This document shows positions 38,242-63,768 of a stretch of 64,000 nucleotides of DNA, in pieces (position 1 is the stretch's first letter; the number at the start of each line of letters is the position of its first letter). The stretch lies in the IMG/VR virus record IMGVR_UViG_2602042090_000006, positions 1 through 64,000 of that record; one strand, given 5' to 3'. The position numbers and the translations under genes were made by a program. This DNA comes from a virus. Its lineage: Duplodnaviria; Caudoviricetes. Below the pieces are notes generated by a model. The model saw nothing but the letters and a program-made list of their open reading frames with translations, was not told the DNA's origin and made no database searches.

Positions 38242-40263
38242 TTACTTTTCGGCTCTGGTCTTACGGCCGGGCTTTACTGACCCTGCCGCTGTCTTCCCCG
38301 TGGGGAATGGGATGATCGCGCTCTCCTCGCCCATGATCCGGGCAAGTCCGCGCGAGAAACTGTTTTCAAATTCGCCTTCACCGATCGCCTCGGCCGAGAC
38401 GGCCGGAGCGAGGTTGCTGCCCGTGATGAGGCGGGTGACGACGGGGCGCGGCGCCGGTGTCTCCGGGCGCTTCTCAGCCTTCTGGGCCTTGGCATAGATG
38501 TCGGCCAGCTTGCCGGCTTCGATCGTGCGGTTGAGTTCCAGCAACGACTTCGTTGCCTTGGCGTGATCGGAGGCCTGCCGTGCCGTCTGACGAGCAGCGG
38601 CTTGGCAGTCGAAACCAGTGGGGAGCACGCACTCCGCGTCACCAATGAACCGGCCGGCGCCGTCGTAGAGCTTGACGGCACCATGCAGGTTTGCCGGATC
38701 GAACCGCATGGTCAGCTTTTTGCCGATCCACTGATTGAGTACCGGAGCCCAATAGCGGTTGCCGGCGTAGTGGACCGCACCATCCGGCTTGCGAGCGGTG
38801 ATGTTCTCGGCCGCAAGCATCCAGAGCGCGCGCTGCGCCGTGCTGGAGTAGCGCAGGATGGTCGAGGGTTCGGCGACGGACTCCGCAAACACGGCGTTGA
38901 AGCTGCGGCCATCGGCCATCTCTGTCTGACGGCCCTCGCGAGCATTGTGCTCTTCGACCATTGCCGAGACATGCTCCTGAAGCACATCGAGCTTCACGGC
39001 ACGGCGTCCATAATCCTCGGGCTTCTCGGCAACGTTCGGGCCTGTGTAGGCCCCGGCCATGGCGGGATGCCGCGAAATCTCGTCGGCCAGATCCTTCCAG
39101 GCGCGTTCGATCGGCTTTGACCGGCCAGAATACGGCTTGGTGAAGTGCGCCTCGATGTCGAGCGTCTTCAGGAGGCCGGCGACCTCGTCTTCCGTGATCT
39201 TGTACCGGTTCCGGGCCTTGGCGCCGCCAGAGATCTTCTTCGAAGCGAACGCTTTCCCGTTGTCCATGTAGATGTGGTAGGGCAGCGCGCCGTCCGCGTT
39301 CTCGATCATCGCGCCGATGCAGGAGCGCACCGCTTCCCACGTCTCGGCTTCAGACAGGATCCACGACAGCACCTTGCGGGAGTAAATGTCTTGGATCCCG
39401 ATGAGGATGACGCGCACCGGCACCTTCTTCCAGGGCACACGCACGAACAGATCGAGCTTGTGACCATCGGTGTTGACCATCTGCATGGCATGAAGATGCG
39501 CGACAGAGCGGGTCTGCGCCGGGAACAGCCGGGCGGCGGCTTCCTTGCCCTCACGGGCCAATATCTGGACAGCTTTCGGAACCTCAGCTTCGAGGCGCCG
39601 GCGCAGCGTGCGCTCGGAAGGGATCGGCGACCAGCCGTTCGCCTTGGCCGCAGTCATCATCCGGCGGAAGCAGGACGAAAACTTCGGCTTGCCCGACCGC
39701 AGGTAGTCCGACTTCAGGACCTCCCAGGCGTCAGCATGACAATCGGCAAGATCTGCGACAACACCGTTGACCGCAGGCGAGAAGGACGGTGCCAGCGCTG
39801 CGAGCCAGTCGGCCCGCGCGTGGCCTTCGACCATCTGACGCCAGTTGTAGTAGGTCCTCTCCGCGACATCGGCCATACGGGTGCAGTGCCTGACGGCAAC
39901 CGTCGTCCCGATGCCGGACTTCTCCATGTCGTCGACCGCGATTAACACGTTGAAACGCTTCCGGCAGATGTCCTTGTGCTCGTCGGTCAGGGCCTCAAAG
40001 CGGCCCCAAAGCAGCTTCGAAGCATCCTTGACGTCTGCTGCGGTCAGATCCGTATTCAGGAAGGCGAGCTTCTGCCGCGCCTCTTTCGGCAGCAGTGAGT
40101 AGTGATATTTGAGGCCACCGCCTTGCTTGGCGATAGCTGCCACTTTCCCGGCCTGATGATCCCATCCCGCGCGATCCGCATGGTCGCGGATACGCCGGAC
40201 AGACGTAGGAAGGCCCGGCAACTTTGCCTCGGCGAGTTCAGGGATGGTGAACCACTCTTTCAT
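38242..40263 (-). CDS. MuA-like DDE transposase
   Basis: Mu-type N-terminal HTH (ELAEAKLPGLP); TDGH, MDNGKAF, SKPIERAW catalytic motifs; C-terminal RFDP. Confidence 0.95.
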   Translation of the reverse strand: MKEWFTIPELAEAKLPGLPTSVRRIRDHADRAGWDHQAGKVAAIAKQGGGLKYHYSLLPKEARQKLAFLNTDLTAADVKDASKLLWGRFEALTDEHKDICRKRFNVLIAVDDMEKSGIGTTVAVRHCTRMADVAERTYYNWRQMVEGHARADWLAALAPSFSPAVNGVVADLADCHADAWEVLKSDYLRSGKPKFSSCFRRMMTAAKANGWSPIPSERTLRRRLEAEVPKAVQILAREGKEAAARLFPAQTRSVAHLHAMQMVNTDGHKLDLFVRVPWKKVPVRVILIGIQDIYSRKVLSWILSEAETWEAVRSCIGAMIENADGALPYHIYMDNGKAFASKKISGGAKARNRYKITEDEVAGLLKTLDIEAHFTKPYSGRSKPIERAWKDLADEISRHPAMAGAYTGPNVAEKPEDYGRRAVKLDVLQEHVSAMVEEHNAREGRQTEMADGRSFNAVFAESVAEPSTILRYSSTAQRALWMLAAENITARKPDGAVHYAGNRYWAPVLNQWIGKKLTMRFDPANLHGAVKLYDGAGRFIGDAECVLPTGFDCQAAARQTARQASDHAKATKSLLELNRTIEAGKLADIYAKAQKAEKRPETPAPRPVVTRLITGSNLAPAVSAEAIGEGEFENSFSRGLARIMGEESAIIPFPTGKTAAGSVKPGRKTRAEK

Positions 40264-40721
40264 CAGCGGCCCCGTCGCTTGATCGTGACGGGACGCGCCT
40301 GCAGTGTCTTCAGTTCGGCTGCCAGCTCGCGTTGCTCCTGCTGAAGGCGTGCGATCTCGGCAAGCCGGGCCTCGTCGCCTTCGAGCAGGATCAAGCCATC
40401 CTCACTGAGCACCACATCCCAAAGCCAGACGGCTCCGGTTGCCCGAACGAACGCCTTGAAGCGCACGAGGCTGATGTCGTGGGCCGTCTTGCTCTCGGCC
40501 GTGTAGGCATCGAGCGCGCCTTTCGACACGGACGACAGGCCGAGGTAGTGAGCCATGCGGGTGGCGATCGTGGGCCGATCGTACGGGCATTCGCGGATGG
40601 CGCGGGCCATCTCGCGCTTCAGCAGCGAGCGGAAACGATCGAGGTCGATCTGCTCGGCAGCCTGCCGTACGGGAAACACAGCTTCGGCGAAGAAGTCGAA
40701 CTGGTGAGGATCGCGCTTCAT
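40263..40721 (-). CDS. Conserved phage protein upstream of the transposase (putative DNA-binding)
   Basis: LDAYTAES...HDISLVRF pattern; synteny. Confidence 0.7.
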   Translation of the reverse strand: MKRDPHQFDFFAEAVFPVRQAAEQIDLDRFRSLLKREMARAIRECPYDRPTIATRMAHYLGLSSVSKGALDAYTAESKTAHDISLVRFKAFVRATGAVWLWDVVLSEDGLILLEGDEARLAEIARLQQEQRELAAELKTLQARPVTIKRRGR

Positions 40722-42611: not shown

Positions 42612-43307
42612 ATGGCGCGTCCTGAATCCGCACCTAAGACCGAGCTGGCAGCACGGCTTCGAGAGTTTCGCCGACAGATGGGCGATCCTGAACGAGATGA
42701 ATTTGCGCGCGGGCTGGGCGTCGGAAAGACAACGCTTGCCTCGTACGAACGAGGCGAGACCGAGCCGACAGCCTCAGTGTTGAACGCCTATCGGGAAAAG
42801 TATGGTGCTAACTTGATTTGGTTTGTCACCGGCAAAGGCGAAGCCGTTGAGGCCAACCAGCGCGTACAACCGGCTGATCTACCGGCTGAGTTCATCCGCT
42901 TGCCGCAGTACGATGTCGCAGCCTCAGCCGGGCGGGGTGTGATTTCGTACGTAGAACACGCCGCTAACGAGGTGACGTTCGAGAAGCGGTTCCTTCGTGC
43001 TCTCGGTGCGCAGCCTGAAAGCTGTTTCCTCATGTGGGCGAAGGGGGACAGCATGTTGCCGACCTTTCCAGATGGGGCCATGCTGATCGTCGATCAAAGC
43101 CAACAGACTGTCGATGACGGCCGGATCTACGTCTTTAACGCTGAGGGCAATTTGCTCGTGAAACGCGCCAGATGGCGCTTTGACGGCAGTCTCGACCTGA
43201 TGTCGGACAACGTTGCCGGAAATTACCCGGTAGAAAGCTTCGTGACAGACCGCATCGTCGATCTGATCGTGGTCGGACGCGTTGTATGGTACGGCCGTTC
43301 CGCATAG
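42612..43307 (+). CDS. CI-type repressor (HTH plus S24 peptidase)
   Basis: N-terminal XRE HTH, ASAG cleavage site, GDSM serine and VKR lysine. Confidence 0.92.
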   Translation: MARPESAPKTELAARLREFRRQMGDPERDEFARGLGVGKTTLASYERGETEPTASVLNAYREKYGANLIWFVTGKGEAVEANQRVQPADLPAEFIRLPQYDVAASAGRGVISYVEHAANEVTFEKRFLRALGAQPESCFLMWAKGDSMLPTFPDGAMLIVDQSQQTVDDGRIYVFNAEGNLLVKRARWRFDGSLDLMSDNVAGNYPVESFVTDRIVDLIVVGRVVWYGRSA

Positions 43308-44388: not shown

Positions 44389-44726
44389 AAGAGCCGTAAA
44401 AGGCATTTCGAGGGATCTTGAAGCCCTCTTCACAGCCGCAGGCAAATTCAGCGAAAATTGCCACATCGGCCTGATTTCGCGGCCGACCCGCTGTCAAAAA
44501 CTCTTGCCGATCATCCCACGCGATCGTCGCACAAACCGTTATCATTCAACGGCTTCCCGCAAAATCCCGCAGGTTCCCAGATAATCCCGGTTATTGCAGA
44601 TAGGTGTGACAGACAACACCGGTGTAGCCGGACGCGACTTTTTGCAATTTTGACACCGGGTTTTGCAGATACTGAGTTCTGCAAATGCACTGACAAAATG
44701 TCTTCAAAGCCTGCTCAACGGCTCGG

Positions 44727-45017
44727 CTAGTTAAGCCAGCCGTCCCTAAAGAGTTGAGCTCGTGCTTTGGCGCACTGTTCCCAATCGATTTCTCTTTTTT
44801 CTTTAAGGGACTCGTCCCGCACCTCCGCCATTTGAGCGGCAGCGAGTTCACCCATCAGGGAGCGAAGCCACTCTTGGGTTTGGGGTCCGATCGTAATCTT
44901 ACATTCTTTCACCCGGATCATCACGTCCAGAATGGCGATCTTACCTGTGACCTGTGCCACTGCCGTCTCACTCACGAACGACAGCGAGGTTATGAAAAAA
45001 AGTCCAAGAGCACGCAT
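44727..45017 (-). CDS. Small exported protein (terminal accessory gene of prophage 2)
   Basis: Signal-peptide-like N-terminus ending AVA-Q, two Cys; TAATG overlap with the methylase stop. Confidence 0.7.
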   Translation of the reverse strand: MRALGLFFITSLSFVSETAVAQVTGKIAILDVMIRVKECKITIGPQTQEWLRSLMGELAAAQMAEVRDESLKEKREIDWEQCAKARAQLFRDGWLN

Positions 45018-45820
45018 TAAGACCTCACAATCAGTTCACGGGCCTGAACGCCTTTGCCGCCCGCGACAGAATAAAGCAGATCCACATCAACAACGTCAAA
45101 TGCGCCAAACAGCTGCCGCGTCTGAGGGGCATCGTTGATCGATAGGACGAAATTCCCCTTCAGCCTACCGAGGCGTTCGGCCATCACCTCGAACTGATCA
45201 CGTCCGAACAGGGCAGCACCATAGTCGCCCTCGCTGCCGAAGTATGGCGGGTCGAGATAGAAGAGCGCGCCGGGCCGATCGTAACGATCGATAAAGGCCA
45301 GCCAGTCGAGGTTCTCGATCACCACACCGGCAAGGCGCTCATGCACGTCCTCGAGCATAGGAGCAAGCCGCGTGAGATTGAACCGAGACCCGCCCTCGTG
45401 CACCACACCGAACGTCTGGCCCGATACCTTGCCGCCGAAGGCAAGCTTCTGGAGATAGATGAAGCGCGCTGCGCGTTCGAGGTCCGTCAGCGTAGAGGGG
45501 TCGCACGCCTTCAAGCGCTCGAACTCGCGACGGCTGGTGATCTGGAATTTGAGGCAATCCATGAACTGCGGATAGTGCCGCTGAAGGATGCGAAACAGGT
45601 TCACGACGTCCCCGTTTCTGTCGTTGATGACCTCATGCCGAGGCGCCGATCGGCGACGGAAGAACACGCCGCCCATGCCTACGAACGGCTCTGCATAGGT
45701 CGTGTGCGGAATGTCGGCGATCATCTTGACCAAGCGCGGGGCCAAGGTCCGTTTTCCACCGATCCATGCGGCTGGTGGCTGGGTATTAACTACGTCTCTA
45801 AAGCCGTCTTCAAAGGGCAT
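45017..45820 (-). CDS. D12-class N6-adenine DNA methyltransferase (copy 2)
   Basis: EPFVGMGG and DPPY motifs; near-identical to 366..1181. Confidence 0.93.
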   Translation of the reverse strand: MPFEDGFRDVVNTQPPAAWIGGKRTLAPRLVKMIADIPHTTYAEPFVGMGGVFFRRRSAPRHEVINDRNGDVVNLFRILQRHYPQFMDCLKFQITSRREFERLKACDPSTLTDLERAARFIYLQKLAFGGKVSGQTFGVVHEGGSRFNLTRLAPMLEDVHERLAGVVIENLDWLAFIDRYDRPGALFYLDPPYFGSEGDYGAALFGRDQFEVMAERLGRLKGNFVLSINDAPQTRQLFGAFDVVDVDLLYSVAGGKGVQARELIVRS

Positions 45821-45840
45821 TTAAAAGGTTCTCAGAATCA

Positions 45841-45996
45841 TGCCACACAGGGCTGCCTCGAAAGAGGTCTGGGTGTGACAGTTATCCTAACTGGCTGTCG
45901 GAAGGGTCTGGCGTCGAAACTTGGCCCGTCCTCGGAGGTTTGCCTCCGGCACCTGGTGCTTGGCTTGCGGAGATCCATCTGAGATCTCCGCAAGCC
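45841..45996. ncRNA. Candidate structured RNA/leader (copy 2)
   Basis: Same hairpin series, including a perfect 14-bp inverted repeat GGCTTGCGGAGATC. Confidence 0.5.
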
Positions 45997-46010
45997 GTGT
46001 CGCTGAGGTA

Positions 46011-46295
46011 TCAGTTGATCGTCTGTTCCGCTGTCTCTTGCACAACCGGCTCGGCCGCGACCGGCGCTTCCGGCCGGTTCGGGTTGAGCTTGCGATCGAC
46101 ATATTCAGGCTCGTACTTCTGGAGCAGGGCATAGGCCTCCGTCAGCTGGGCCGAAATCGTGTCGAAGCCCTGGGCGAGCATATCGCACTCGTTCTGGAGA
46201 GCTTCGTTACGGCGCTTCATCGAGTTGATCATCATGTGCATGCTGAGTTTCCTTGTGAGGTTGTTCTGGATGGAAAGTCGGGATCGGCGTGTCAT
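46011..46295 (-). CDS. Hypothetical phage protein (copy 2)
   Basis: Paralogue of 1372..1656. Confidence 0.75.
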   Translation of the reverse strand: MTRRSRLSIQNNLTRKLSMHMMINSMKRRNEALQNECDMLAQGFDTISAQLTEAYALLQKYEPEYVDRKLNPNRPEAPVAAEPVVQETAEQTIN

Positions 46296-46978
46296 TCGGC
46301 CGACCAGTTGACCTCGGCGGCTGCGGTGATGGCCTGTGCGGTTTCTGCCGCCGCAATCGCCTTTTTCGCAGCCATACGCTTGGCCTCGACGCCTGCCGAG
46401 ATGTGCTGCCATCCTGTGAAGGTATCGACGATCTGATGTGCCTTCTCAGCCTTGGTCATCCCGTCGGCTTCGGCTTCAGCCACGATGTGAGGGATATCCG
46501 CGTCCGGGACGCCGGCGAAAGCGACCTTTGCGCGAGCCTCATCGAGCTTCTGCTGATAGGCCATGATCTGACCAAAGCCCGGCGTGATGAACTGCATCCG
46601 GTATGCCTCGGCCGCGCGATCGATCTTCACCACGGCTTCGGCCCGAAGCGCATCGAGATCGACCTCCGCTGGAGCCGGGCTCCACTGGTCGATGTAGGTT
46701 TTCAGGCCGTCCGGGATCGCCGGCCAATCGTTGGTGAAGCCGTCGAAGAGTGCGTCTTCGGCCTTGGTCAGCTGGCCGCGCAACGCGTCCGCGTCCGGGC
46801 CCGACAGCTCGGCCAGCATCTTGCCCGCCGTCTGATACCAGAACTCGGATGCGCTGAGGATCTGCTGTCGGCCGAGCCAGATGGCAGCGGCAACGGCCCA
46901 GCGCGAGGGCTTCTTCTGTTTCAGGCTCTCGACGACGCCGTCGGCCATGGACTCGTACATGCTATCGATGTTGTACAT
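46292..46978 (-). CDS. Phage protein downstream of the tail fibre (copy 2)
   Basis: Paralogue of 1653..2339. Confidence 0.75.
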   Translation of the reverse strand: MYNIDSMYESMADGVVESLKQKKPSRWAVAAAIWLGRQQILSASEFWYQTAGKMLAELSGPDADALRGQLTKAEDALFDGFTNDWPAIPDGLKTYIDQWSPAPAEVDLDALRAEAVVKIDRAAEAYRMQFITPGFGQIMAYQQKLDEARAKVAFAGVPDADIPHIVAEAEADGMTKAEKAHQIVDTFTGWQHISAGVEAKRMAAKKAIAAAETAQAITAAAEVNWSAE

Positions 46979-47011
46979 TGCTTTTCCTCTTGGTGGTTTC
47001 AGGTAGGCACG

Positions 47012-47314
47012 TCATCGGGATCGCCGTGGTGATCTCCACGGCAGGGCATCCAGAATTTGCTGATCGGGGCTGACTTGAGCGACTTCCGGCTCAACCGGCA
47101 CAATCTCAAGCGTTCGCGGATCGACGCGAATGTCTGTGACGGAAAGCAGCCTTTCCGGAACACGAAGGCTGGGGTTGGCGTACCGGGCTGTCTCAGCGTC
47201 GTATTCCGCACGCCCGAAGGCATTGCCGTGGTCGGAGATGGAGCCTGTCACCGGGTCGTAAATCACGAACCACAGTTCCTGCTCTCCGGGTCCAATGCTG
47301 TCAGACTCGCTCAT
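47012..47314 (-). CDS. Small acidic protein coupled to the fibre C-terminus (only in prophage 2)
   Basis: ATGA overlap with the fibre stop; FVIYDPVTGSI motif resembles fibre-associated proteins. Confidence 0.65.
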   Translation of the reverse strand: MSESDSIGPGEQELWFVIYDPVTGSISDHGNAFGRAEYDAETARYANPSLRVPERLLSVTDIRVDPRTLEIVPVEPEVAQVSPDQQILDALPWRSPRRSR

Positions 47315-50300
47315 TTCTTCAACCTCGTGATCGTCCATGAGGTGCCGTCATTCGTCATGCCGGCGCTGCTGCCGAAATACCCCATGTCTTTATTGTTCGT
47401 TCGCATCGCGCCGCCGGACCCCATGACGAACACGAGGGTAATCGTCACGTTCTGCGCGCTGCCGCCGTTGGTGAAGCTGCCGGAGATCGACTGGCTAGAG
47501 CAGCCGTAGGTATCGATGGCCGGCCCCGTGACTTTGATGGTGTCGAGGACCGTGCTGTTGATCTTCAGCTGCACGTCGCCGGCGTAGAACACTTCGGCGT
47601 TAACCCCTGTCATGGAGCCGCGAAGGTTCCAGAAGGCGTTGATGACGAGACGCTCTTCGGGTGCCAGCGTCAGTGTGCGCGTCAGCACCGTCGTCGTCGC
47701 CGACTTCGCCACGCTGCCGCCGCTCGTGTTGTAGTAGACATTCGAGATGGCGCCGTTGACCAGCTTCTCCCCGTTCAGGGTCGCATCGGTGATGTCGATG
47801 TTCGTGACCTTGATGTTCAGCGCCGACAGGTTCGCGACACTGATTTTCTCGGCCGTAACGGCATTGGCTGCGATCTTGTCTGCCGTCACCGCGTTCGCGG
47901 CGATCATGCCGGCCGTGAGGGCGCCATCTACGATCAGATCGCCGCCGTTGCGCTCGAAGCACCCCACGGCACCGAAGTAGACATTGCCGCCCGTTGTGTC
48001 CCGCTGGACAAACAGCTCGATGACGGCGGAAGCCGCTTCGCCGGGAGAAACCAGATTGACAGCCAGCGTACCCGTGCCGCCCGACCCTCGGTTGCCGGTG
48101 TTGATGTAATCAACGTAGCTCGCAATGTTCCCGCTGGCGTTCAGCCAGAGCACGCGGATCATGGCGTTGAAATTGTTGTTCGAGTAGATGGCGCCGGTGA
48201 AGCGGTAGGCAGTGCCGCCCTTTACCGGGAATGACCGGCTCTGGCAGTTCGTGTAGCCTCCGGAACCCCAGGGCCCAGCAGTGAAGGCCATTCCATTGTA
48301 GGACTGAAAGAGGCCGTGATCGCCCCATACGACCCAGCCCGGAATGGTGCCGACCCACGCATCTGTCGTCGTCATCTGGTTGTCCGGGACCAGATTGTTG
48401 AAATCCGAGATGACGAGCTGCTTTGCGGTGATCGAGCCTGCCGCGATCTCGCGCGCACCCAGCGTGTTGGCCTGAAGCTTAGAGCCAGTGATCACGCCCG
48501 CCTGGATATTGTCGGCGGTGATCGCATTGGCGGCAATCTTCCCCGCCACGACAGCATTCGCTCCGATTTTGTCAGAGCTGATGGCAAACGCCTGGATTTT
48601 GTCGGCGGTGATCGCGTTCGATGCGATCTCGGTAGCGCTGATCGTGCCAACCGCGATGTGACCGGCGCCGATCGTGCGCGCATTGATCTCGTAGCCGGTG
48701 ATCGTCGCAGCGATGAAGCTGTCAGCCGAGATGGTCCGGACCGCAATCTTGTCACCGGTTATCGTGCCACCGGCGATCTTCGCGGCCGTGATGGCGTTCG
48801 CGGCTAGCTGGTTGGTCGAGACCGCGCCGGCAGCGATCGTCGCTGCGGTCACGGCGTTAGCAGCGATTGTCCCGGCCGTCACAGCGTTTGCAGCAATCGT
48901 GCCTGCTGTCACCGCGTTCGCTGCGATCTTCCCGGCCGTGATCGCATTTGCCGCGATCTTGTTGGCCGTAATCGCGTTGGTGACGATGTTGCCTTCGGAG
49001 ATGACGGTCGTTCCGCCCTCGCTCCAAGGCGATGCTTCCAGCTGGTTGGCCGTCGCTTCGCCCAGATAGAACTTGGACGCCCAGGTGTAGGAGTTCGTGC
49101 CCCATGCCGCACTATGCCCCATGCACCGCAGGAAGAGCTGAACGTGCGTGGTTCCGGCCGGAGCCTGTCCTTTCACCCAGATCCGCTCATAGCTGGCCAA
49201 CTGGCTGCCCGGATCGCCGTTCTGGTGCGTTGGCTTGTCCGCGAACGTATAGCCAATCGTCACGCCACCGTTGTTGACGTACTCGATGTGAAGGCGAGCA
49301 TAATCAGACCGGTGCCCGTAGACATAAACAGACGCTTCTAGCCATGAGCCCTGCGCAACCGGCCAACGCATAGGGATGTTGTTGTCTGCGGGATTTCGCG
49401 GGGACAGGTCGGCAAACTGGCCGTTGTTTTGCGCGCCCTCCTGCAGAACCTGAAATGCGCCGTCGATAGGCGTGAAGTTGTCGTTGCGCTTGAGGAACGA
49501 CCAGTTCGCGCTGGACGCATAGATCCTCCAGTTGGTGATGTCGGCCTGGGCATTTGAGTTCGGGATCCAGTTCGTCCCTTTGCCGACGGCGAGCTTGTCT
49601 GCATAGATGGAGCCCGCAGCGATCTTGTCGGCAATGACCGCTCCAGCGGCGATCTGCCCCGCCGTGACGGCGCCGGCCGCAATGGTGCCGGTCGTAACCG
49701 CATTGGCCGCAATCGTGCCGGCCGTGATCGCGTTTGCGGCAACCGTGCCGGCGGTTACTGCATTTGCCGCGATCTTGCCCGCGACAACAGCCCCGGAGGC
49801 AATGCTAGCCGCTTCCACGGCGCCGGCGCTGATTTTCCCGGCGGTGACTGCGTTCGCTGCAATCTCGCTTGCGGTAACGGCATTGGCTGCGATCTTCGCC
49901 GTGGTGATCGAGTCCGCCGCAAGGTGGATGGTCGAGATCGATCCATCCACGACCAGCTCGGCACCCTCCGCCTTCCGCAGAGAAATGCGATCGATGATCA
50001 GGTAGCGCGTCGTTGACGGGCTGTGGTGGTAGATCTGCACCTTGCAATAGGTCGCAGAACCCGGAACCTGCGTCTTGCCGGAGCGCTTGTCCCAAGCGGC
50101 TGGAATAGACGCGTTGCCCTGCACATCGGTGTACTGCGGCGACGCAAGCGCTGTCTTGTTACGATCGAACCACAGGATGCGGTAATAGAAACCGAAACCT
50201 GAAGATCCGTCAGTCGTACGAACGGACACATCCCACGCCAGCCAGTCACCGGACGTCACGGGGATGAAGTCCTTCGTGACCATATTCATGGAGATGGTGC

Positions 50301-53300
50301 CGCCGGACCCCCCGTTTGTGCCGTTCTCCAGAACAAGCGACCAACGACCGGTCTGTGCGTCACCGACCCAGAGCCAGATATTTGCGCCGCCCGCACCGGA
50401 GCCGTTGTACATCGGATAGTTGGCGTCCCAGACCGATGTGAGCGCGCCTTGCTCAAACTGCCCGTCGGGAATGAAGTTTTCAAAATCCGTTAAGATGAGC
50501 TGCTTGGCCGAGATCGCGTTCGCGGCGATATTGTTGGCCACGATTGCGTCAGCGGCGATTTTCCCCGCAACCACGGCATTGGCCGCAAGCTCATTGGCAG
50601 TGACGGCGCTGGCGGCCAGCTTTGCAGTCGTGATGGCGCCGGAAGCGATCTCGGTCGCGGAGATCACGCCCGCCGCGATCTTCCCGGCGACAACCGAGTT
50701 CACAGCCAGTTTGTCGGCGGTAACAGCCAAGGCATCGAGCTTCGCAGTCGTGATGGCGCCCGACGCAATCGTGCCGGCGGTGACGGCGCCAGCAGCGAGC
50801 TTGGCCGTCTCGATCGCGCCGGAGGCGATCTTCGCGGCCGTAATCGCATTCGCCGCGATCTCATTGGCTGTGACAGCATTGGCAGCGATCTTGCCGGCTA
50901 CGATGGCACCAGCAGCGATCTTGTTCGCAGTGATCGCATTGGTGACGATGTTGCCCTCGGTGATGAGGGTGATCGAACCTTCGCTCCACGGAGTAGGCTC
51001 GGACTGGTACTGCGTTGCTTCCCCGACATAGAAACGAGAGAACCATGTGTAGGAGTCGGTGCCATTTGCGGCACTATGACCAAAGCAGCGCAAAAAGATT
51101 TCGACATGCGTTGTGCCTGCCGGCGCCTGACCCTTTGCCCAAACCCGCTGATAGGCTGAAAGCTGGCTTCCAGGGTCCGAGTTCTGGTTTGTCGGCTTGG
51201 CATCCATGATGAAGCCGAGCGAGTTACCGCCGTTATTGAAGCATTCGATATAGAGCTGAACGCCGTTCGAACGGTGCCCGAAAACATAGACGGACGCTTC
51301 CAGCCACGACAGCTGCGCAACAGGCCAGCGCATAGCGTAGTTGTTGTCGAACGGGCTTCGCGGGTTAACGTCTACGAAGGCTCCATCGAGCCGTGCGCCG
51401 CTCTGAAGAACGTAGAAGCAGCCATCGATGGGTGAGTAGTTGTTGTTCGCCTTTCCAAAGTCCCAAGTCCCCCCCGACCGGAACTTGATGCCCCAGTTTG
51501 TCAGGTCGGCCTGAGCGTTCGAGTTCGAGACCCAGTTGACGCCCTTGCCGACGGCCAACTTCTCTGCGGTGATGATCCCTGCAGCGAGGTTCGCGGCGGA
51601 GACTGCACTCGCTGCAATGGTGCCAGCCGTGATGGCATTCGCAGCCACGGTACCGGCTGTAACGGCGCCGGCCGAAATCGTGCCGGCTGTCACGGCGTTG
51701 GTCGCGATCTTGCCAGCGATAACAGCGTTCGCCCCGATCGTTCCGGCCGTCACGGCGCCGGCGGCAAGCTTGGCCGTCTCGATGGCGCCGGCGGCGATCT
51801 TGACAGCGGTGATCGCATTCGCAGCGATCGCGTCGGCCGTCACAGCGTTTGCTGCAATGGCGTTGGCCGTGATCGCAGCAGCCGACACATGCCGCGCGAC
51901 GATCGCGCCATCGACGATCAGGGATGCTTCCGCCATCTCGACAAGCTGGATGTCGGAGATCAGCCAATAGCCTACGGCGTCCGTTCCGGTGTCCATGTAC
52001 GGAACAGGCGTCGCGGTCTGCGTCCTGGAGCTGTCCGTCTTGAAGCGCCATTCGATCGTCTTGCCGGCAGCTGCCTGATATCCGGTGTCCGTCGCTGAAG
52101 CGATGACGCCCCCATCCGAGGCGGAGATCGACATGTCGTTGATGACGAGCGCATTGAAGTTCTTGTTGCACCCGACGTTCTTCACGATAGCCGACGCGCG
52201 GTACCAGGTGTCCGGCGTCAGGGGAAAGCCGCGGGCGATCCAGCCATGGATGCGCGGGCCGGCGTTCGCCGCAGCAAGGGCGGCATTGAACTTCATGGCA
52301 CCAGAGACGCGCATCGCTGCGACCTGGGCATCCGTGCTGGAGACGAACGTCACATAGGGAGCGTTTGGGGACCAATAGCCCGGATCTCCGTAGAACCGGT
52401 CAAGAATGAGGCTCGCGCCTACAGCGTTCGCGGCGATCGACATCTTGGATGCCGTGATCGCGTTGACGGCAATCTTGTCCGCCACGATGGCGCTCGCCTG
52501 AAGCTTCGGCGTCGAGATCGCATCATCGGCGATCTTCGTGTTCGTCACCGCGTTCGAGGCAAGCTTTGCCGCATCGACCGCGAGCGCCGCAAGCTTGGCG
52601 TTTGTGATGGCGAGATCGGCGATCTGTGTTCCGACAAGCTGGCCGGAAACCTTGGCGGCGGCAACGGCGGCGATCTGCGCATCCGTTAGCTGGCCCGTGA
52701 CCTTGCCGGCCGCGATCGCTGCGATTTGTGTGTCGGCGATCGTGCCGCCGATATCCGGAGCCGCGACACTCGAAGTCCACGCGGCCCCATCAAACCGGTA
52801 GATCTTGCTATCGGTGCTCAAGAACACGACCCGGCCCGCCGCATTGCCAGACGTCGGAAGCGAGGCGACGGTTTCTACGGGCTTCAGGCCTGTGCCGAAC
52901 TTCGCGGCCGTGATGGCGGCATCGGCGATTTGACTTGAGACCAGCGTGCCTGTGACCTTGGCCGCGCCGACGGCTGCAATCTGCGTATCGGTCAACTGGC
53001 CGGTGACCTTGGACGCGGAGAGTGCGGCCAGCTGGGCGTCCAGCAACGTGCCGGTGATGTCGCCGGCAGCCAAAGTGGAGACGAAGGCCGTGCCGTTGAA
53101 ACGATAGATCTTGTCATCCGTCGTCAGGAAGACGATCCGGCCTTCGGTGTTGCCCGTGGTCGGCAGCGAGGACACGATTTCGATCGGACGAAGGCCGGCG
53201 GCAAACTTCGCGGTCGTAACGGCAGCGTCAGCGATCTTCCCAGCGATGACCGACCCATCCGCAAGCTTCGTCGCGTCAACGGCCAACGCCGCAAGCTTCG

Positions 53301-56088
53301 CATTCGATATCGCCAGATCAGCAATTTGCGTTCCAACGAGCTGGCCGGCGACCTTGGCAGCGGCGACGGCTGCGATCTGGGCATCCGTGAGCTGGCCTGT
53401 GATCTTCGAGGCCGCGAGGCTGGCGATGTTGGCCTCGGCGATAGCACCGTTGATGTCGGCCGCATCGACGGTCGAGATCCAGCTCGTGCCGGTGTAGCGG
53501 TAGACCTTGCCGTCCGTGGTGAGGAACGCCATGCGGCCTGCGGTGTTGCCCGTTGTCGGCAAAGCGGAGACGACTTCCACCGGGCGCAAGCCAGTGGCAA
53601 ATTTGGCCGCCGTCACGGCTGCATCGGCAAGCTTGCCGGCTGTGATGGCGGCGTCGCTGATTTGCGTGCCGACGATCGTGCCCGTCAGGTCCACCGTCGG
53701 CACAGATGCCGTGTAGGCAGAGCCGTTCCAACGGTAGAGCTTGCCGTTGACGGTGATGACATCCTGCGATTTCGTGGTCGGTACGACGGTGCCAGAGATG
53801 ACACCGACCGGCGCGATCCCGGAGGCAAACTTCGTTGCATCGACGGCCTGCGCCGCCAGCTTGTCGCGCTCGATCGCCGCGTCAGCGATCTTCGCGGCAA
53901 TGACCGCACCGTCCATGATCTTGCTGACAGAGACCGCAGCGTCAGCCAGCTTGGCCGTGATCACAGCGCGATCGGCCAGGATCTGTGCCGTGACGGCCGC
54001 TACCTCAAGCTTCGCAGTCGAGACGGCAGCATCTGCCAGCTTCAGACCAGTGACAGCCGCATCCATGATCTTGTTGGCCGAAACCGCAGCGTTGCCGATC
54101 TTGCTGGTGATGATGGCGCCGTCGAGGACGTCGGCCGACGAGAACCCGATATTCGCCGTCGTCAGCGAGATCCAGGCCGAGTCCTCCGTCTTGCGCGGCG
54201 AGTAAGGGACGAGCTTTCCCTGCACCTCGTATTCGGTCGCCGGCAAGAGCCACATGCCGCTCAAGGGCCATTCGCTCGATGTCGGCCCGTAGGGGAACTG
54301 GTCGCTTTCGAAGACGACGACACCCGTCGCCTTCAGGCGAACACGGACCAGGACGCGCGCAACATCGGCGAGGTTGGTGGCGCAGGACACGATGATGACC
54401 GGCCGGCGGCTCCGGCCGTCCGGGTCCGTCAGAACATCGGCGCGGGCACCCCAGCCGGTCATCGGCTGCTTTGGGACATCGATGCGGCCGATCCAGCCGC
54501 TCGACACGACCTCCTGCATGGTCCGCGCCCAATCGTAGTCGGTCGGGTCGATCTCCTGCAGGGTGACGATCTGGTTCATGCCCATCTGACCACGGCGTTC
54601 CGTGACGAGGAAGCGCTTGTTCACATAGCCATTGTGCGGTGACGTCCAGGAGACGACATCGATGCCGGCCTCGAGCACATAGGCCATTGGAGGCAGAGGG
54701 AGCTGGTGACGGCGGAAACGGCGCGCCTCGGCCAAGATGGCGCGCATCAGCTGCTGGACCTGCCGATCGTGCGACGTCGCTCCGAAAGAGATGTCGGCGA
54801 GATTGCGCTTGCCGTCCAGAGCTTCAAACGCGTCGTTGCGAACGACCGGCGCATCCTTGGCGACCCAAGCCTCTTCCGGGTTCGGATACTTGGCCGTCAC
54901 CCCGTTGATGGTGAGATCGACGGAGGGGAACGGATCGAAGCCGGCCGGCTCGGTGATCAGGGTGTCGGCGTCCGAGAACCCAAAGACAGCTCCGCCGAAG
55001 ATGCCGTTCTTCATCTTGAAGACGCCGCCCTGGTCGGTCAGCCGTCCGTTTTGCGCCTTGCGAAGCTCCTCGACGACAGTGAGCGGCACCATGTCGCCGG
55101 AGATCTCGTAACCGCCGCGCCACTGCGGCTCCGTCGTTTTGTCCGCCCGCTCGACCAAACGGCCGGCCTCCTGGCATGCAGCAATCCAGTTGGACGACGG
55201 CAGCCGGCGTGCGTTGACCTTTTGGCCGCCGTAGAACCATTCGCCCTTGTAGCGAAGGCCCCGCAGGACGTTGTAGGTCATCACGCCGAGGTTATAGGAG
55301 GGCTCGTGGGTGCTCGGATCATCCCATCGATGGGTGCCGTTGCCGCCGTTCGTGCTGTCCTTGCGTATGTCGTAGAGCGGGAGAGGCGTCGGCTCAAACA
55401 GAACCTTCGGCTGTCCTTTGAAATAGTCGCGCTCCCAGCGATAGGTCATAATGGCATAGGGGATGCCACGCCCGACCATGGTTGCATCCCAAGGCCGATC
55501 CTCGTCTTCGCCGAATGTCTCTACAAGGAAAGGGTCAGCGACCGTCTGCAAGCCGCTATAGAACTTCACCCAGCAGTAATCGTGAACGGTCCCTTCGGTG
55601 TCGCGGAATTCTTTGAGCGGATAGCCTCGCCCGAACACCGCGTCAGGCTCATTCCAAAGGATCGTGCACTTCTCGCCCTCGATCCAGATGCCATCGAGGC
55701 CGGGGAGCGGGAGGTTGCCCAGCTCAATGACTTCCGTGAAATACGTGTTTGGTGTGTCACCGTCGTAATTACCCCACGTGCCGTAGTACTTGCGCTTCCC
55801 GCGCGTGGCGAACTGACCGATCGTCGTCGAGACCGGCTTGTCATCGCCAACATCCGCCTGGATCTTGGCGCCCACTGGTGGCGGCGCATCCGGTGCGGTG
55901 GCCATCTGCCAAAGCGTCGTGGCGGCAGCCAGCGCCAGACTGACCACGGCATTGACGATACCGGAGCCACTGATGACGGCGCTGAAGACGCCGGCAATGG
56001 CACCGATCAGCGGACCAGCGGCTGCGGGGTCGGGCTGAAGCAGGAAAAACGTCAGGGCGGTTGTGGCGAGAGCGGCTTTCTTGAACAT
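47311..56088 (-). CDS. Giant tail tip/fibre protein (2925 aa, copy 2)
   Basis: Same architecture as 2400..11084 with different modules 2 and 4 and a different C-terminus. Confidence 0.87.
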   Translation of the reverse strand: MFKKAALATTALTFFLLQPDPAAAGPLIGAIAGVFSAVISGSGIVNAVVSLALAAATTLWQMATAPDAPPPVGAKIQADVGDDKPVSTTIGQFATRGKRKYYGTWGNYDGDTPNTYFTEVIELGNLPLPGLDGIWIEGEKCTILWNEPDAVFGRGYPLKEFRDTEGTVHDYCWVKFYSGLQTVADPFLVETFGEDEDRPWDATMVGRGIPYAIMTYRWERDYFKGQPKVLFEPTPLPLYDIRKDSTNGGNGTHRWDDPSTHEPSYNLGVMTYNVLRGLRYKGEWFYGGQKVNARRLPSSNWIAACQEAGRLVERADKTTEPQWRGGYEISGDMVPLTVVEELRKAQNGRLTDQGGVFKMKNGIFGGAVFGFSDADTLITEPAGFDPFPSVDLTINGVTAKYPNPEEAWVAKDAPVVRNDAFEALDGKRNLADISFGATSHDRQVQQLMRAILAEARRFRRHQLPLPPMAYVLEAGIDVVSWTSPHNGYVNKRFLVTERRGQMGMNQIVTLQEIDPTDYDWARTMQEVVSSGWIGRIDVPKQPMTGWGARADVLTDPDGRSRRPVIIVSCATNLADVARVLVRVRLKATGVVVFESDQFPYGPTSSEWPLSGMWLLPATEYEVQGKLVPYSPRKTEDSAWISLTTANIGFSSADVLDGAIITSKIGNAAVSANKIMDAAVTGLKLADAAVSTAKLEVAAVTAQILADRAVITAKLADAAVSVSKIMDGAVIAAKIADAAIERDKLAAQAVDATKFASGIAPVGVISGTVVPTTKSQDVITVNGKLYRWNGSAYTASVPTVDLTGTIVGTQISDAAITAGKLADAAVTAAKFATGLRPVEVVSALPTTGNTAGRMAFLTTDGKVYRYTGTSWISTVDAADINGAIAEANIASLAASKITGQLTDAQIAAVAAAKVAGQLVGTQIADLAISNAKLAALAVDATKLADGSVIAGKIADAAVTTAKFAAGLRPIEIVSSLPTTGNTEGRIVFLTTDDKIYRFNGTAFVSTLAAGDITGTLLDAQLAALSASKVTGQLTDTQIAAVGAAKVTGTLVSSQIADAAITAAKFGTGLKPVETVASLPTSGNAAGRVVFLSTDSKIYRFDGAAWTSSVAAPDIGGTIADTQIAAIAAGKVTGQLTDAQIAAVAAAKVSGQLVGTQIADLAITNAKLAALAVDAAKLASNAVTNTKIADDAISTPKLQASAIVADKIAVNAITASKMSIAANAVGASLILDRFYGDPGYWSPNAPYVTFVSSTDAQVAAMRVSGAMKFNAALAAANAGPRIHGWIARGFPLTPDTWYRASAIVKNVGCNKNFNALVINDMSISASDGGVIASATDTGYQAAAGKTIEWRFKTDSSRTQTATPVPYMDTGTDAVGYWLISDIQLVEMAEASLIVDGAIVARHVSAAAITANAIAANAVTADAIAANAITAVKIAAGAIETAKLAAGAVTAGTIGANAVIAGKIATNAVTAGTISAGAVTAGTVAANAITAGTIAASAVSAANLAAGIITAEKLAVGKGVNWVSNSNAQADLTNWGIKFRSGGTWDFGKANNNYSPIDGCFYVLQSGARLDGAFVDVNPRSPFDNNYAMRWPVAQLSWLEASVYVFGHRSNGVQLYIECFNNGGNSLGFIMDAKPTNQNSDPGSQLSAYQRVWAKGQAPAGTTHVEIFLRCFGHSAANGTDSYTWFSRFYVGEATQYQSEPTPWSEGSITLITEGNIVTNAITANKIAAGAIVAGKIAANAVTANEIAANAITAAKIASGAIETAKLAAGAVTAGTIASGAITTAKLDALAVTADKLAVNSVVAGKIAAGVISATEIASGAITTAKLAASAVTANELAANAVVAGKIAADAIVANNIAANAISAKQLILTDFENFIPDGQFEQGALTSVWDANYPMYNGSGAGGANIWLWVGDAQTGRWSLVLENGTNGGSGGTISMNMVTKDFIPVTSGDWLAWDVSVRTTDGSSGFGFYYRILWFDRNKTALASPQYTDVQGNASIPAAWDKRSGKTQVPGSATYCKVQIYHHSPSTTRYLIIDRISLRKAEGAELVVDGSISTIHLAADSITTAKIAANAVTASEIAANAVTAGKISAGAVEAASIASGAVVAGKIAANAVTAGTVAANAITAGTIAANAVTTGTIAAGAVTAGQIAAGAVIADKIAAGSIYADKLAVGKGTNWIPNSNAQADITNWRIYASSANWSFLKRNDNFTPIDGAFQVLQEGAQNNGQFADLSPRNPADNNIPMRWPVAQGSWLEASVYVYGHRSDYARLHIEYVNNGGVTIGYTFADKPTHQNGDPGSQLASYERIWVKGQAPAGTTHVQLFLRCMGHSAAWGTNSYTWASKFYLGEATANQLEASPWSEGGTTVISEGNIVTNAITANKIAANAITAGKIAANAVTAGTIAANAVTAGTIAANAVTAATIAAGAVSTNQLAANAITAAKIAGGTITGDKIAVRTISADSFIAATITGYEINARTIGAGHIAVGTISATEIASNAITADKIQAFAISSDKIGANAVVAGKIAANAITADNIQAGVITGSKLQANTLGAREIAAGSITAKQLVISDFNNLVPDNQMTTTDAWVGTIPGWVVWGDHGLFQSYNGMAFTAGPWGSGGYTNCQSRSFPVKGGTAYRFTGAIYSNNNFNAMIRVLWLNASGNIASYVDYINTGNRGSGGTGTLAVNLVSPGEAASAVIELFVQRDTTGGNVYFGAVGCFERNGGDLIVDGALTAGMIAANAVTADKIAANAVTAEKISVANLSALNIKVTNIDITDATLNGEKLVNGAISNVYYNTSGGSVAKSATTTVLTRTLTLAPEERLVINAFWNLRGSMTGVNAEVFYAGDVQLKINSTVLDTIKVTGPAIDTYGCSSQSISGSFTNGGSAQNVTITLVFVMGSGGAMRTNNKDMGYFGSSAGMTNDGTSWTITRLKK

Positions 56089-56513
56089 CAGCCCACCCTG
56101 AAGGCGCGAACCGCCTTCTCGCGATCGACGCTAGCAAGGCCCGCCTCGCCCATCACCCAGATCCGATCGAAGTCGAACACGCCGAGCACGTGGCGGAACT
56201 GCGTATCCGTCGGAATAGCGGCGATATCGCCTGTCTGCGCATCAACCGGATGGTCATGTTCGGGAAGCAACGACGCGGCGAAGTCGGCCAGATCCTCAAA
56301 GCCGGCCGCGCGCATCAGACGATAGGCCGACACGGCATCGTTATAGTCGCCCTGATCGGGCACGGGCAGCTCGGCGCCGGTGATGGCGATCACGGATGCA
56401 ATGGCAAGCTGTCCGCAATCGTTCTGCGCCCAGGCGAACGGCTTCCGGCGGATGTCGTCGAAGACATCGCAGAAGGGTCCGATCCAGAGTTCGCGGCGCT
56501 TCAGCTCAATCAT
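56088..56513 (-). CDS. Tail tip protein, NlpC/P60-like (copy 2)
   Basis: Paralogue of 11084..11509. Confidence 0.75.
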   Translation of the reverse strand: MIELKRRELWIGPFCDVFDDIRRKPFAWAQNDCGQLAIASVIAITGAELPVPDQGDYNDAVSAYRLMRAAGFEDLADFAASLLPEHDHPVDAQTGDIAAIPTDTQFRHVLGVFDFDRIWVMGEAGLASVDREKAVRAFRVG

Positions 56514-57160
56514 TCTTCGCCCCAGGGTTCGATCCAGTTGGCAACGGAGCCGGCATATTTTCCGAAGTTATCGACCTCGCCGTTCGGGCCCTTCCGCTTC
56601 TTCTGCTCTTCGGCGCTGGACTTGGCTGGGTTCGGCCGGGTCAGGTTGACCATGGCGTCGTTGACGAGGCGGATCTCCAGCACTTCGCCGCCGCCGTCTT
56701 CAGCGGCCGTCTGCACGCTCGCGCCGTCAATGACGCCGAGGTAATCGTTCTCGGGCATCGAGGAGAGCTGGCGCGTCGTCGGATCGAGAAGGCCAATCCA
56801 GATTTCGAGCGAGCCCGCGCGGCAATCAAGGCCACGCGACATGTCCTCGACGGCCGGGTTGAGCATCGTCATGGAGACCGTGCGGGTGTTGACCTCAAGC
56901 GTCGAGGTGCTGACGCTCTCGCCCGTGTCGAGGTCAACCTGCCCTTGGAAGGTACGGGCATAGACCTCACCGTCGATCAGCGATCGAACCTCAACTGTCA
57001 CCGGCCGATCACCGGACCAAAAGGACTTCGTCTCCAGCGAGGTATTGCCGTTCGCGTCGGGGTAGGTGCGCGCGATCACGGATACGAACCAGCGCGGCAC
57101 GATGCCGTCCTGGGGCGCGTTTTGCAGCAAAGCAAAGAAGGCGGGATCGACTGTCTTCAT
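56510..57160 (-). CDS. Minor tail (hub-like) protein (copy 2)
   Basis: Paralogue of 11506..12156. Confidence 0.72.
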   Translation of the reverse strand: MKTVDPAFFALLQNAPQDGIVPRWFVSVIARTYPDANGNTSLETKSFWSGDRPVTVEVRSLIDGEVYARTFQGQVDLDTGESVSTSTLEVNTRTVSMTMLNPAVEDMSRGLDCRAGSLEIWIGLLDPTTRQLSSMPENDYLGVIDGASVQTAAEDGGGEVLEIRLVNDAMVNLTRPNPAKSSAEEQKKRKGPNGEVDNFGKYAGSVANWIEPWGEE

Positions 57161-57810
57161 GGCTTTTCGATCGCTGTGAAACCGGCGCCCTCTGTCAGGT
57201 GACGGCGCGCGCGGCCCGGCATGTGGCTGTCCGGCATGATGACCATGCGGCAGGCCGGCCGGGCGAAGATCGTGGTGGCGTTGACAGCCAGGCCGTCCGG
57301 CACATTCGGGAAGATGCTCAGTGCCGGCGTCACCCCGTTGCTGCCTGCAACACCGCGCTCAGATATCTCGAGGAAGGCGTATTGAACGGGATTGCTGCCC
57401 CACGACACCTGAAACTTGTCGGCGATCGTAAGGACGTAGCCGGCCGGAAAACCCTTGAAGCTCATCGAGCGGCGGTCCGTCCCGATCGTGTTGATCTGAA
57501 TAAGGCGGCTGCCGAGGATCGTCCCGCGCGGGTCCGTGGCCGGATAAGGCGACAGCGGGTCGAACAGCCAGAAGGCCTCCTGGGCACCGCGAAGGGCGCG
57601 GATCAGGGCGGCGTACTGTTTCATCTCGGCACTCGAGCGGCGATCGAGTTCCACCACGGCGCGCCAAAGCGGGTCGGCCATCTCGGTCTGCCAGATGCGA
57701 CCGCTGCCCTGTCCGGACAGGCTGTCACGACGCTTGATGCCCCACTCGACGCTGGAGATAGGAAGCCGATCGGCGAATGTCGGAAGGCTGTAGGGGAAGC
57801 TGAGGGTCAT
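57157..57810 (-). CDS. Distal tail protein (copy 2)
   Basis: Paralogue of 12153..12806. Confidence 0.72.
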   Translation of the reverse strand: MTLSFPYSLPTFADRLPISSVEWGIKRRDSLSGQGSGRIWQTEMADPLWRAVVELDRRSSAEMKQYAALIRALRGAQEAFWLFDPLSPYPATDPRGTILGSRLIQINTIGTDRRSMSFKGFPAGYVLTIADKFQVSWGSNPVQYAFLEISERGVAGSNGVTPALSIFPNVPDGLAVNATTIFARPACRMVIMPDSHMPGRARRHLTEGAGFTAIEKP

Positions 57811-61961: not shown

Positions 61962-62251
61962 TCCTCGTCCTCCTCGGCGGAGGCCGGGTCGCCGTCGTTG
62001 AAGAGCGGCAGGACGGCGTCCTCGATGACGCGAAGATCCCGGAACACGTCGGGCTCATAGCCCTCGGCATCGAGCACGATCTTGCAGGCGGCATAGTCGA
62101 GGCCAATGAACAAGACGCCGTTCTTGTTCGACGCCGCTCTCCACTGCGTCGAGCACGCGATGAAACCGGAAAGACTGGCGGCGTTCTGGATCACGAGGGC
62201 AATCTCATCGTCGTCGGGTTCAGCATCGTCATCGTCCATGACGAACGTCAC
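61958..62251 (-). CDS. DUF1799-like chaperone extension (copy 2)
   Basis: Paralogue; slippery site at 62359..62365. Confidence 0.8.
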   Translation of the reverse strand: MTFVMDDDDAEPDDDEIALVIQNAASLSGFIACSTQWRAASNKNGVLFIGLDYAACKIVLDAEGYEPDVFRDLRVIEDAVLPLFNDGDPASAEEDEE

Positions 62252-62355
62252 GCCGAGCTTCTGGGACTGCTGGCGGAGATCGTCATCGATGATGGTGGCA
62301 CGGGAGGGATCGACGCGACCGAGGCGGACGTATGTCCACGCGACGGCCGCGTCCG

Positions 62356-63766: not shown

Positions 63767-63768
63767 GA

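Follow-up and report, generated by a model that had tools for sequence, protein, structure and literature searches.

The window examined here, the whole 64,000-nt stretch from the virus record IMGVR_UViG_2602042090_000006, corresponds to C1 3595396–3659395 of the 7-contig genome G000 and carries two Mu-like prophages, P1 and P2, which meet head to tail with 4 bp between their ends. With a probability of about 0.8, this junction arose as a by-product of Mu-type transposition that was targeted and repeated, in a MuA/MuB clade found in Rhizobium-like bacteria; that insertion in the clade occurs by Mu-type transposition aimed at the 3′ flanks of tRNA genes is held with the same confidence. Members of the clade would integrate by a 5-bp staggered cut as Mu does, but at targets that are not near-random. 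The preferred interval would lie ~10–120 bp 3′ of certain tRNA genes, mostly those with a CAU anticodon called tRNA-Met and also those for Ser and His, with the right end of the phage always facing the tRNA. Inside this interval Mu-like 5-mers would be preferred, CCGG-containing ones above all. Where a resident right end (TGTAGCCGGA) already lies in the interval, the next phage would tend to enter it within its first 10 bases or immediately ahead of it, and later recombination between related phages would collapse the array and leave short right-end remnants, here called stubs.

The P1/P2 junction and its surroundings

An earlier note on this DNA had described two stacked prophages, with the last base of the P1 left end at 44618, CCGG at 44619–44622 and the right end of P2 from 44623, and this arrangement was borne out. 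Read directly, the sequence up to 44618 is GACAGACAACA and that from 44623 is TGTAGCCGGACGCG; the palindrome ACACCGGTGT, also described earlier, is present at 44616–44625 because ...ACA, CCGG and TGT... adjoin. No host DNA separates the two prophages, as had been stated, the 4 bp being the visible remainder of the P1 target duplication CCGGT. This duplication is perfect, with copies at −125 to −121 relative to the window and at 44619–44623, and the spacer looks 4 bp long because the right copy ends on the base with which P2 begins. The suggestion that a 5-bp target had overlapped the terminal base of a resident element therefore fits the sequence: CCGGT flanks P1 on both sides, with the last T taken from P2.

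The right terminus of P1 lies at C1 3595275, 120 bp before the window, where it reads TGTAGCCGGACGCG... and is 85 % identical to 44619–44711; P1 appears complete. The record of Sinorhizobium phage Aussie starts TGTTGTC..., and its other terminus, read inward, is TGTAGC...TTTTCCGGAATTTTGACAC; these match the P1 left end and the P2 right end. Additionally, a metagenome contig of a P1 relative (run X2) departs from P1 exactly after 44618, 7 other elements flanked by duplications start their left ends as P1 does, and the motif of the P2 right end recurs in 54 right ends elsewhere. On these comparisons both termini at the junction are genuine phage ends. Since the aligned blocks of P1 and P2 are 83–96 % identical and some segments cannot be aligned, P1 and P2 are related but distinct phages.

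Both belong to an array of ~120 kb, in the order tRNA-Met, 62 bp, a 9-nt right-end stub, P1, P2, an insertion sequence (IS) of IS21-like type, and a third prophage, P3. All three prophages have the same orientation, with the right end towards the tRNA. The tRNA-Met gene is located at C1 3595126–3595202, and the stub TGTAGCCGG, which lies past the spacer and directly upstream of P1, equals the first nine bases of a right end. C1 is circular; its ends (C1 3663383–3669122 and 1–5756) overlap by 5.75 kb at 99.7 % identity, untrimmed, inside P2. At C1 6811 P2 is cut by the IS21-like element (IstA/IstB; C1 6812–9317, 2,506 bp), for which no flanking duplication was found at this copy, and the P2 lysis/early region and left end are missing. 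P3 begins ~29 nt inside its right end beyond the IS and ends at its left end, C1 51846. Transposition of the composite through its outer ends, as the earlier note had envisaged, is unsupported: P2 is without its left part, P3 is without its right terminus and the array is ~120 kb long.

In same-genus relatives, similarity to G000 ends at the 3′ end of tRNA-Met. The empty locus, a comparison that had been called for, is approached in the relative G004, where no more than ~170 bp separate the tRNA from the gene that lies beyond P3 in G000; relative to this near-empty site, the G000 insert spans from 62 bp past tRNA-Met to C1 51846. In contig X5 a P1-like left end is followed by CCGG and then by sequence like the G004 flank, and thus the same locus has been used elsewhere without P2. 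G006 and G007 carry Mu-like right ends 60–80 bp past the same tRNA-Met. As a separate observation, this tRNA-Met is followed by other, unrelated DNA in G001, G002, G003 and G005, and it is a hot spot for other islands too.

Right ends beside tRNA genes

The termini are 5′-TG...CA-3′ with a 5-bp target duplication, as in Mu. Perfect 5-bp direct repeats flank 10 elements, and every one is different in sequence: CCGGT (P1), CTTTG (G007), CTGAG (G320), TCCAG (G047), CCCGC (G119:C26), AGGTA (G119:C7), CTTGT (G131), CTTTA (G165), GCCGG (G186) and GTCGA (G117). Because the duplications and the distances to the tRNA differ between loci, the insertion events are independent. No match to the tyrosine or serine recombinase families (PF00589, PF00239) was found in C1 3595265–3669122 or C1 1–51846. 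Insertions lie beyond the tRNA gene, with no att core overlapping the tRNA 3′ end. All this marks the insertions as products of transposition and not of site-specific recombination. The prophages of G321, which run off their contigs, were excluded.

A scan for TGTAGCCGGWCGCG-N12-TTTGACA, with one genome per species, gave 54 right ends in 52 loci of Rhizobium, Pararhizobium, Mycoplana, Ciceribacter, Mesorhizobium, Nitratireductor and metagenome-assembled genomes. A full tRNA gene stands 12–252 bp upstream on the same strand in 44 of the 54; 40 of these genes are tRNA-Met(CAT), from several different genes, 2 are tRNA-His and 2 tRNA-Ser. Two further loci can be added, L083 with a tRNA recognized by Rfam and L058 with a tRNA cut by the contig start, which brings the count to 46 of 53 assessable right ends (L064, at a contig start, was left out). 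The median distance from tRNA to right end is ~45 bp. The chance expectation for a position within 250 bp 3′ of a tRNA, given the orientation, is 0.13 % (56 tRNAs in 5.43 Mb). Only short tRNA 3′ fragments are present at L054 and L085. A MuA search at E≤1e-30 was negative in 5 of the 10 genomes that contributed loci to the pattern set; many of these right ends are therefore remnants and not full prophages. A 14-mer pattern scan of 301 family genomes was discarded, its matches being no commoner than in a reversed control (one of these genomes, G096, is unpublished, and no result given here depends on it), and a left-end pattern search in five genomes, made with too narrow a motif, found none.

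A second sample was chosen by MuA homology alone (E≤1e-60) among 150 other family genomes. Thirteen matches were obtained in 10 of these; nine are assessable, the other four (including that of G011) lying on contigs that end. In 8 of the 9 a TGTAGC... right end is located 20–102 bp 3′ of tRNA-Met or tRNA-Ser, and six of these 8 have right-end variants outside the reach of the pattern scan. G119 has prophages at two different tRNA-Ser genes. No tRNA genes were found in ten left-end regions totalling 70.8 kb. A class-level sample yielded MuA matches of 38–43 % identity in 9 of 350 genomes. Its only confidently mapped elements, in G521 (ATGGG) and G394 (GAAGT), are not tRNA-adjacent. With the ends of G370, G501, G354 and G483 not confidently mapped, this sample supports no firm count; no tRNA was found in the 20-kb right-side region of G501 or G354, and in G483 one lies on the other strand ~7 kb away. 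Thus tRNA targeting looks confined to a clade centred on Rhizobium-like hosts, the class sample being too small to count on.

Stubs matching the start of a right end occur directly before a full right end in 12 of the 54 cases, in comparison to 109 of 9862 random positions. They are 9 nt long at four loci (the same nonamer as upstream of P1) and 10 nt long at three; lengths of 23, 44 and 47 nt, among others, also occur. The last five bases of a stub, which form the duplication of the newcomer, are mostly GCCGG, CCGGA or TCCGG, and fit the Mu-like preference CYSRG, a consensus taken from the available part of PMC7350765. The right end itself carries CCGG at bases 6–9 and again near base 20; resident right ends are struck because they lie inside the tRNA-flank interval and carry CCGG. 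In G007 (L012) three right-end units stand in a row and the outermost pairs with the left end via CTTTG. Five units are found in one prophage of G131 (L115 9361–9620). The stacked units of both genomes are 23–92 nt each, head to tail, with the outermost paired to the left end by a duplication, and in G131 the left end is followed by CTTGT and then by older right-end stubs, a second head-to-tail junction. The earlier proposal of fixed-site targeting with array building can accordingly be kept in a refined form, the fixed place being the tRNA 3′ flank.

The distribution described above (46/53, 8/9, and insertions 0–100 bp from resident right ends) is not that of near-random targeting with cis-immunity. 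Nor do three prophages at one G000 site, with stubs and stacks elsewhere, speak for target immunity. Insertion at 0–100 bp from resident ends would imply that cis-immunity is weak or absent in this clade.

Three further features of these regions were recorded. The sequence TGTCCGACCCGGAGACATAGGTAACA... stands 10–11 bp past tRNA-Met or tRNA-Ser, upstream of TGTAGCC-type right ends, at L086, L074, L097 and L054 (also L058 and L096), and perhaps represents a stub left by a different family of ends with the same target address. Repeated GGTTAGCC[AT] motifs are present in the spacers between tRNA-Met and the right end at three unrelated loci, L063, L065 and L078. Bases 6–13 of the most-used tRNA(CAT) gene and of tRNA-His are TGTAGCTC (e.g. 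at L055 and L062), like the right-end start TGTAGC...; other target tRNAs are without it and the likeness may be chance. The linking of targeted tRNA type to a phage protein was given up, as one genome has the same right-end sequence at tRNA-Met and tRNA-His (L056, L062) and contigs break at the ends.

Order of insertion and alternative explanations

The favoured order places P1 later than P2. An older right end would have stood 62 bp past tRNA-Met, and P2 would have inserted into GCCGG (bases 5–9 of that end), leaving the 9-nt stub. P1 would then have entered CCGG|T, across the stub and the first base of P2, which would produce the succession of P1 left end, CCGG and P2 right end. Most likely, recombination between two copies of the IS21-like element finally deleted the first ~29 nt of the P3 right end and, from P2, the early region and the left end. 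P1 and P3 have MuA proteins 89 % and MuB proteins 99 % identical, with repressors only 29 % identical, so superinfection of a P3 lysogen is plausible.

Of the alternatives, the one that survives best leaves the targeting unchanged and reverses the order, and it is considered rather unlikely. P1 would first have inserted at CCGGT (bases 6–10) of an older right end of the TGTAGCCGGTCGCG variant, and P2 afterwards at A|CCGG, overlapping the last base of P1. This reproduces every base of the junction; the T-variant right end exists (G007 unit 2, L084, L092, L063), and in contig X5 this locus holds a P1-like phage that is not followed by P2. However, this order demands a P2 insertion 44.8 kb away from the tRNA, whereas at other loci the most recent insertions sit close to the tRNA (in G131, and with stubs always upstream). 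P1 is also intact where P2 and P3 are decayed. Moreover, the exact precursor of the favoured order, a 9-nt stub followed by a full right end, which would be the state before P1 arrived, is seen at four loci (L060, L066, L104, L105).

A second alternative would make the resident phage end the primary target, as in the dimers of IS30 and IS21, the tRNA site being merely where the first copy landed. Stubs before 12 of the 54 right ends, the stacked units of G007 and G131 and the junction itself would be expected from it. Yet 42 of the 54 right ends have no stub and most of these still adjoin tRNAs; the insertions use no fewer than three tRNA types, with many different spacers and, in G119, two tRNA-Ser genes; left-end stubs are absent, as are tRNAs on the left-end side; and first insertions require a target without a resident end. 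End-directed insertion as the primary rule is thus improbable.

Mu-like random insertion, with the tRNA link arising from selection for harmless sites, vertical inheritance or replacement by homologous recombination, is a very slight possibility. Related genomes do share loci, L076 and L095 have identical spacers, and homologous recombination does reshape arrays, as the pairing of the outermost G007 unit with the left end indicates. Against this, harmless intergenic sites far outnumber tRNA flanks, but the right ends fall within 252 bp of a tRNA, always in one orientation, in 46 of 53 and 8 of 9 cases; the duplications and distances differ between loci; and recombinational replacement would yield neither new duplications nor stubs.

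Equally remote is an origin of the junction in faulty assembly or in tandem duplication of a single prophage: C1 is unpolished in places, given its untrimmed terminal overlap, and no public read run searched contains the junction (best share of words 0.20), but P1 and P2 differ by 4–17 % over aligned blocks and are in parts unalignable, the P1 left-end region occurs once in the G000 genome, the join coincides exactly with two genuine termini and makes a perfect 5-bp duplication complete, and a comparable junction exists in G131. The four read runs compared cover the junction only in parts, and missing cover over 44630–44800 is uninformative.

Several observations weigh against repeated, tRNA-directed transposition as the source of the junction, or against parts of that history. 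The junction rests on the assembly, given the read searches above. About one insertion in ten is away from a tRNA: five of the 53 assessable right ends (L059, L067, L072, L090, L094) have no tRNA or other Rfam RNA nearby, and the G047 prophage, with its TCCAG duplication, is 15 kb from the nearest tRNA. The spread of 12–252 bp between tRNA and right end means that there is no single attachment point. The genomes are related and not independent, L076 and L095 share one spacer, and two of the 8 tRNA-adjacent elements of the MuA-chosen sample repeat pattern-set loci. In the record of Ochrobactrum phage POA1180 the right ends adjoin fragments of protein-coding genes and not tRNAs, so that lytic-phase copies may land elsewhere. 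The left-end flank of P2 is deleted, which makes the order of P1 and P2 unprovable. The flank of the outermost stub, GCCGC, does not match the P3 left-end flank, TCGGC, and ~66–78 bp present in G004 are missing from G000, so that the array began in a more complex way than the favoured order describes, with more than one site or a further deletion. Finally, no known target selector was found in the array: matches to TniQ (PF06527) in G000 are located only on C2 and C6, and a Pfam scan of 30 P1 and P2 proteins gave 0 matches to it.

Gene content and a candidate targeting factor

The features of the window are collected in the table. P1 has Mu-type head genes (portal, F, Gp27) and a Mor-type late activator, and the P2 gene order in the window is the same as that at the start of the window, in P1. 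PF02914, PF09039, PF02316 and PF09299 are matched both by the P1 MuA protein and in P3. The DNA block 412–2339 is 93.6 % identical to 45051–46978.

Table. Features of the window (positions in nt from its first base; HTH, helix-turn-helix; ORF, open reading frame)
Feature	Position	Strand	Basis or remark
P1, Mu-like siphovirus-type prophage, 44,739 bp	1–44618	−	Pfam MuA, MuB, Portal_Mu, Mu_F, Gp27, Mor; CCGGT-flanked ends
Gene homologous to the P2 methyltransferase gene, near P1 right end	366–1181	−	DNA similarity, ORF; itself outside Pfam scan
MuB-type AAA+ target-capture protein of P1, 341 aa	37139–38164	−	AAA_22 (PF13401) and Phage-MuB_C (PF09077); phrog_296
MuA-type transposase of P1, 673 aa	38242–40263	−	DDE_2, HTH_Tnp_Mu_1, HTH_Tnp_Mu_2, Mu-transpos_C
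152-aa protein of P1, stop overlapping MuA start	40263–40721	−	phrog_2345; predicted HTH and long C-terminal helix
ParB_N-like protein, 275 aa	40718–41545	−	One of three genes upstream of MuA in 13 of 13 related elements
Ner-like gene of P1	42194–42523		
P1 repressor, HTH and S24 peptidase	42612–43307	+	
P1 left (repressor-side) terminal region	44540–44618	−	Minus strand starts TGTTGTCTGTCAC; start as in Aussie left end
Right copy of P1 target duplication CCGGT	44619–44623	.	Four bases are the spacer, the fifth is the first base of P2
P2 right terminal region	44623–44711	+	TGTAGCCGGACGCG, then TTTTGCA[AG] and TTTGACA repeats; 85 % identical to P1 right end
P2, part in window	44623–64000	−	Runs over contig ends to C1 6811, ~30.2 kb in total
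D12-class adenine methyltransferase, adjoining P2 right end	45017–45820	−	

A candidate for an accessory or targeting factor, judging from gene position, conservation and predicted fold, is the 152-aa protein encoded directly upstream of MuA, which may be coupled to MuA and act through MuB. Three genes upstream of MuA, encoding a 122-aa protein, the ParB_N-like protein and the 152-aa protein, are shared by 13 of 13 related elements. The 152-aa protein is 44–99 % identical across these 13, better conserved than MuA (in the 9 elements with both values) and than MuB (10 elements), and among 50,697 phage records it is present in only 3, those of Aussie, StopSmel and POA1180. Its fold model (pLDDT 79) consists of a helical domain and a long C-terminal helix; a fold search with this model gave no match at E≤0.001, only weak matches of XRE-type helix-turn-helix. 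A protein atlas places it with clusters automatically named ‘DNA transposition protein family’. The N-terminus of MuB is likewise helix-turn-helix-like. Two points count against the candidate: distant homologues of the 152-aa protein are present in the G521 prophage, which is not tRNA-adjacent, and the link between this protein and targeting is confounded with phylogeny.

Tentatively, a selector unrelated to TniQ, either the 152-aa protein or the N-terminal helix-turn-helix of MuB, might mark tRNA genes and load MuB directionally on their 3′ flank. This would amount to a Tn7-like ‘safe-site’ pathway for lysogeny beside Mu-like replication, with no cis-immunity and with the stub stacks as a chronological record of infection; the scheme as a whole is possible and short of probable. 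A selector that nucleates a MuB filament running in one direction, by analogy with TnsC in Tn7-like systems as presented in the available portion of PMC10293859, would be in keeping with the variable distance and the strict orientation.

Other observations concern the remaining genes. The Mu F-like head protein (24457–25701, minus strand) has a C-terminal PBECR2 (Barnase/EndoU/colicin-like) nuclease domain. Giant tail-region proteins of ~2,900 aa with internal DNA repeats are encoded on the minus strand in P1 (2400–11084) and P2 (47311–56088), and form the most divergent shared part of the two prophages (73–86 % identical). The IS21-like element is present in ~38 near-identical copies (≥99.9 %) over C1, C2, C3, C5 and C6, a recent IS burst.

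Comparison with known systems

Ty3, Ty1 and the Dictyostelium TRE retroelements insert in an interval beside tRNA genes, which serves as a safe haven; they move by reverse transcription and recognize RNA polymerase III factors, which are absent from bacteria. The likeness is in tRNA-flank insertion, with unrelated chemistry and partners. Head-to-tail dimers of IS30 and IS21 consist of two copies of the same element with ends abutted a few bp apart. The 4-bp abutment here is alike, but P1 and P2 are different phages and their transposase is of MuA type. Integrase-type prophages at tRNA genes share the genomic address; they differ in that no recombinase was found in the array, no att core covers the tRNA 3′ end, and the duplications are 5 bp long and variable in sequence.

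The closest isolated relatives are Sinorhizobium phages Aussie and StopSmel and Ochrobactrum phage POA1180, with MuA 48–52 % identical (Aussie 52 %) and the 152-aa protein 69–70 % identical. Aussie has the ParB-like/152-aa/A/B gene order of P1, as well as the same kind of termini, TGTTGTC... and TGTAGC... A table in PMC12429752 lists ‘transposase/-’ for Aussie and StopSmel, with no integration site given, and the available part of the Ochrobactrum phage paper (PMC5492332) has no discussion of an integration site. A literature search, with many subscription journals outside its coverage, found no paper on tRNA-directed insertion by a Mu-like phage. In the POA1180 record (NC_070931.1, 27200–28500) the right end occurs twice, inverted, around a fragment of a chromate-transporter gene, and the left end follows a fragment of an ATPase gene. 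This phage's genes for ‘chromate resistance’ look like host DNA attached to Mu-type ends, and the joining of its ends to differing host gene fragments is the only hint of replicative transposition with variable host DNA on virion ends.

Mu itself is the textbook transposing phage, inserting nearly anywhere and protecting the neighbourhood of its own ends. Shared with it are a MuA-type DDE transposase with Mu DNA-binding domains (33 % identical to that of Mu), a MuB AAA+ protein, Ner-like and Mor-like regulators, and the Mu-type portal, F and Gp27. Likewise shared are TG...CA ends, 5-bp duplications and target 5-mers resembling CYSRG, as this motif appears in the accessible text of PMC7350765. 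In the same text Mu samples the whole chromosome and avoids ~1.5–5 kb around resident ends (cis-immunity); according to that portion of Walker and Harshey (2020; PMC7350765), Mu does not hop <1.5 kb from its ends and has ‘discarded’ partners for Tn7-type targeting. In contrast, insertions of the present clade fall 12–252 bp 3′ of tRNA genes and have a single orientation, with repeated cases 0–100 bp from resident right ends.

Tn7-like and CRISPR-associated transposons likewise have a MuA/MuB-related transposase with an AAA+ partner. They also share a set place downstream of a conserved gene, one orientation and a gene left intact, the place being in the present case an interval and not a point. 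One such system homes to 30–33 nt past a tRNA-Leu gene, and Mu is placed outside the transposons with known target selectors, both according to the available portion of PMC10293859. The array differs in that no TniQ or TnsD was found in it, the spacing from the tRNA varies, nothing points to target immunity and the element is a complete phage. If insertion in this clade is indeed directed to tRNA flanks, with resident ends tolerated or even preferred, it would follow that a MuA/MuB machine can be aimed without the TniQ/TnsD of Tn7. Such aiming would explain lysogeny without host mutation, and also why, in rhizobia, end ‘fossils’ and prophage arrays accumulate next to particular tRNA genes. The isolated relatives would then offer a tractable system for finding a new kind of target selector, one that could serve the site-directed insertion of large DNA.

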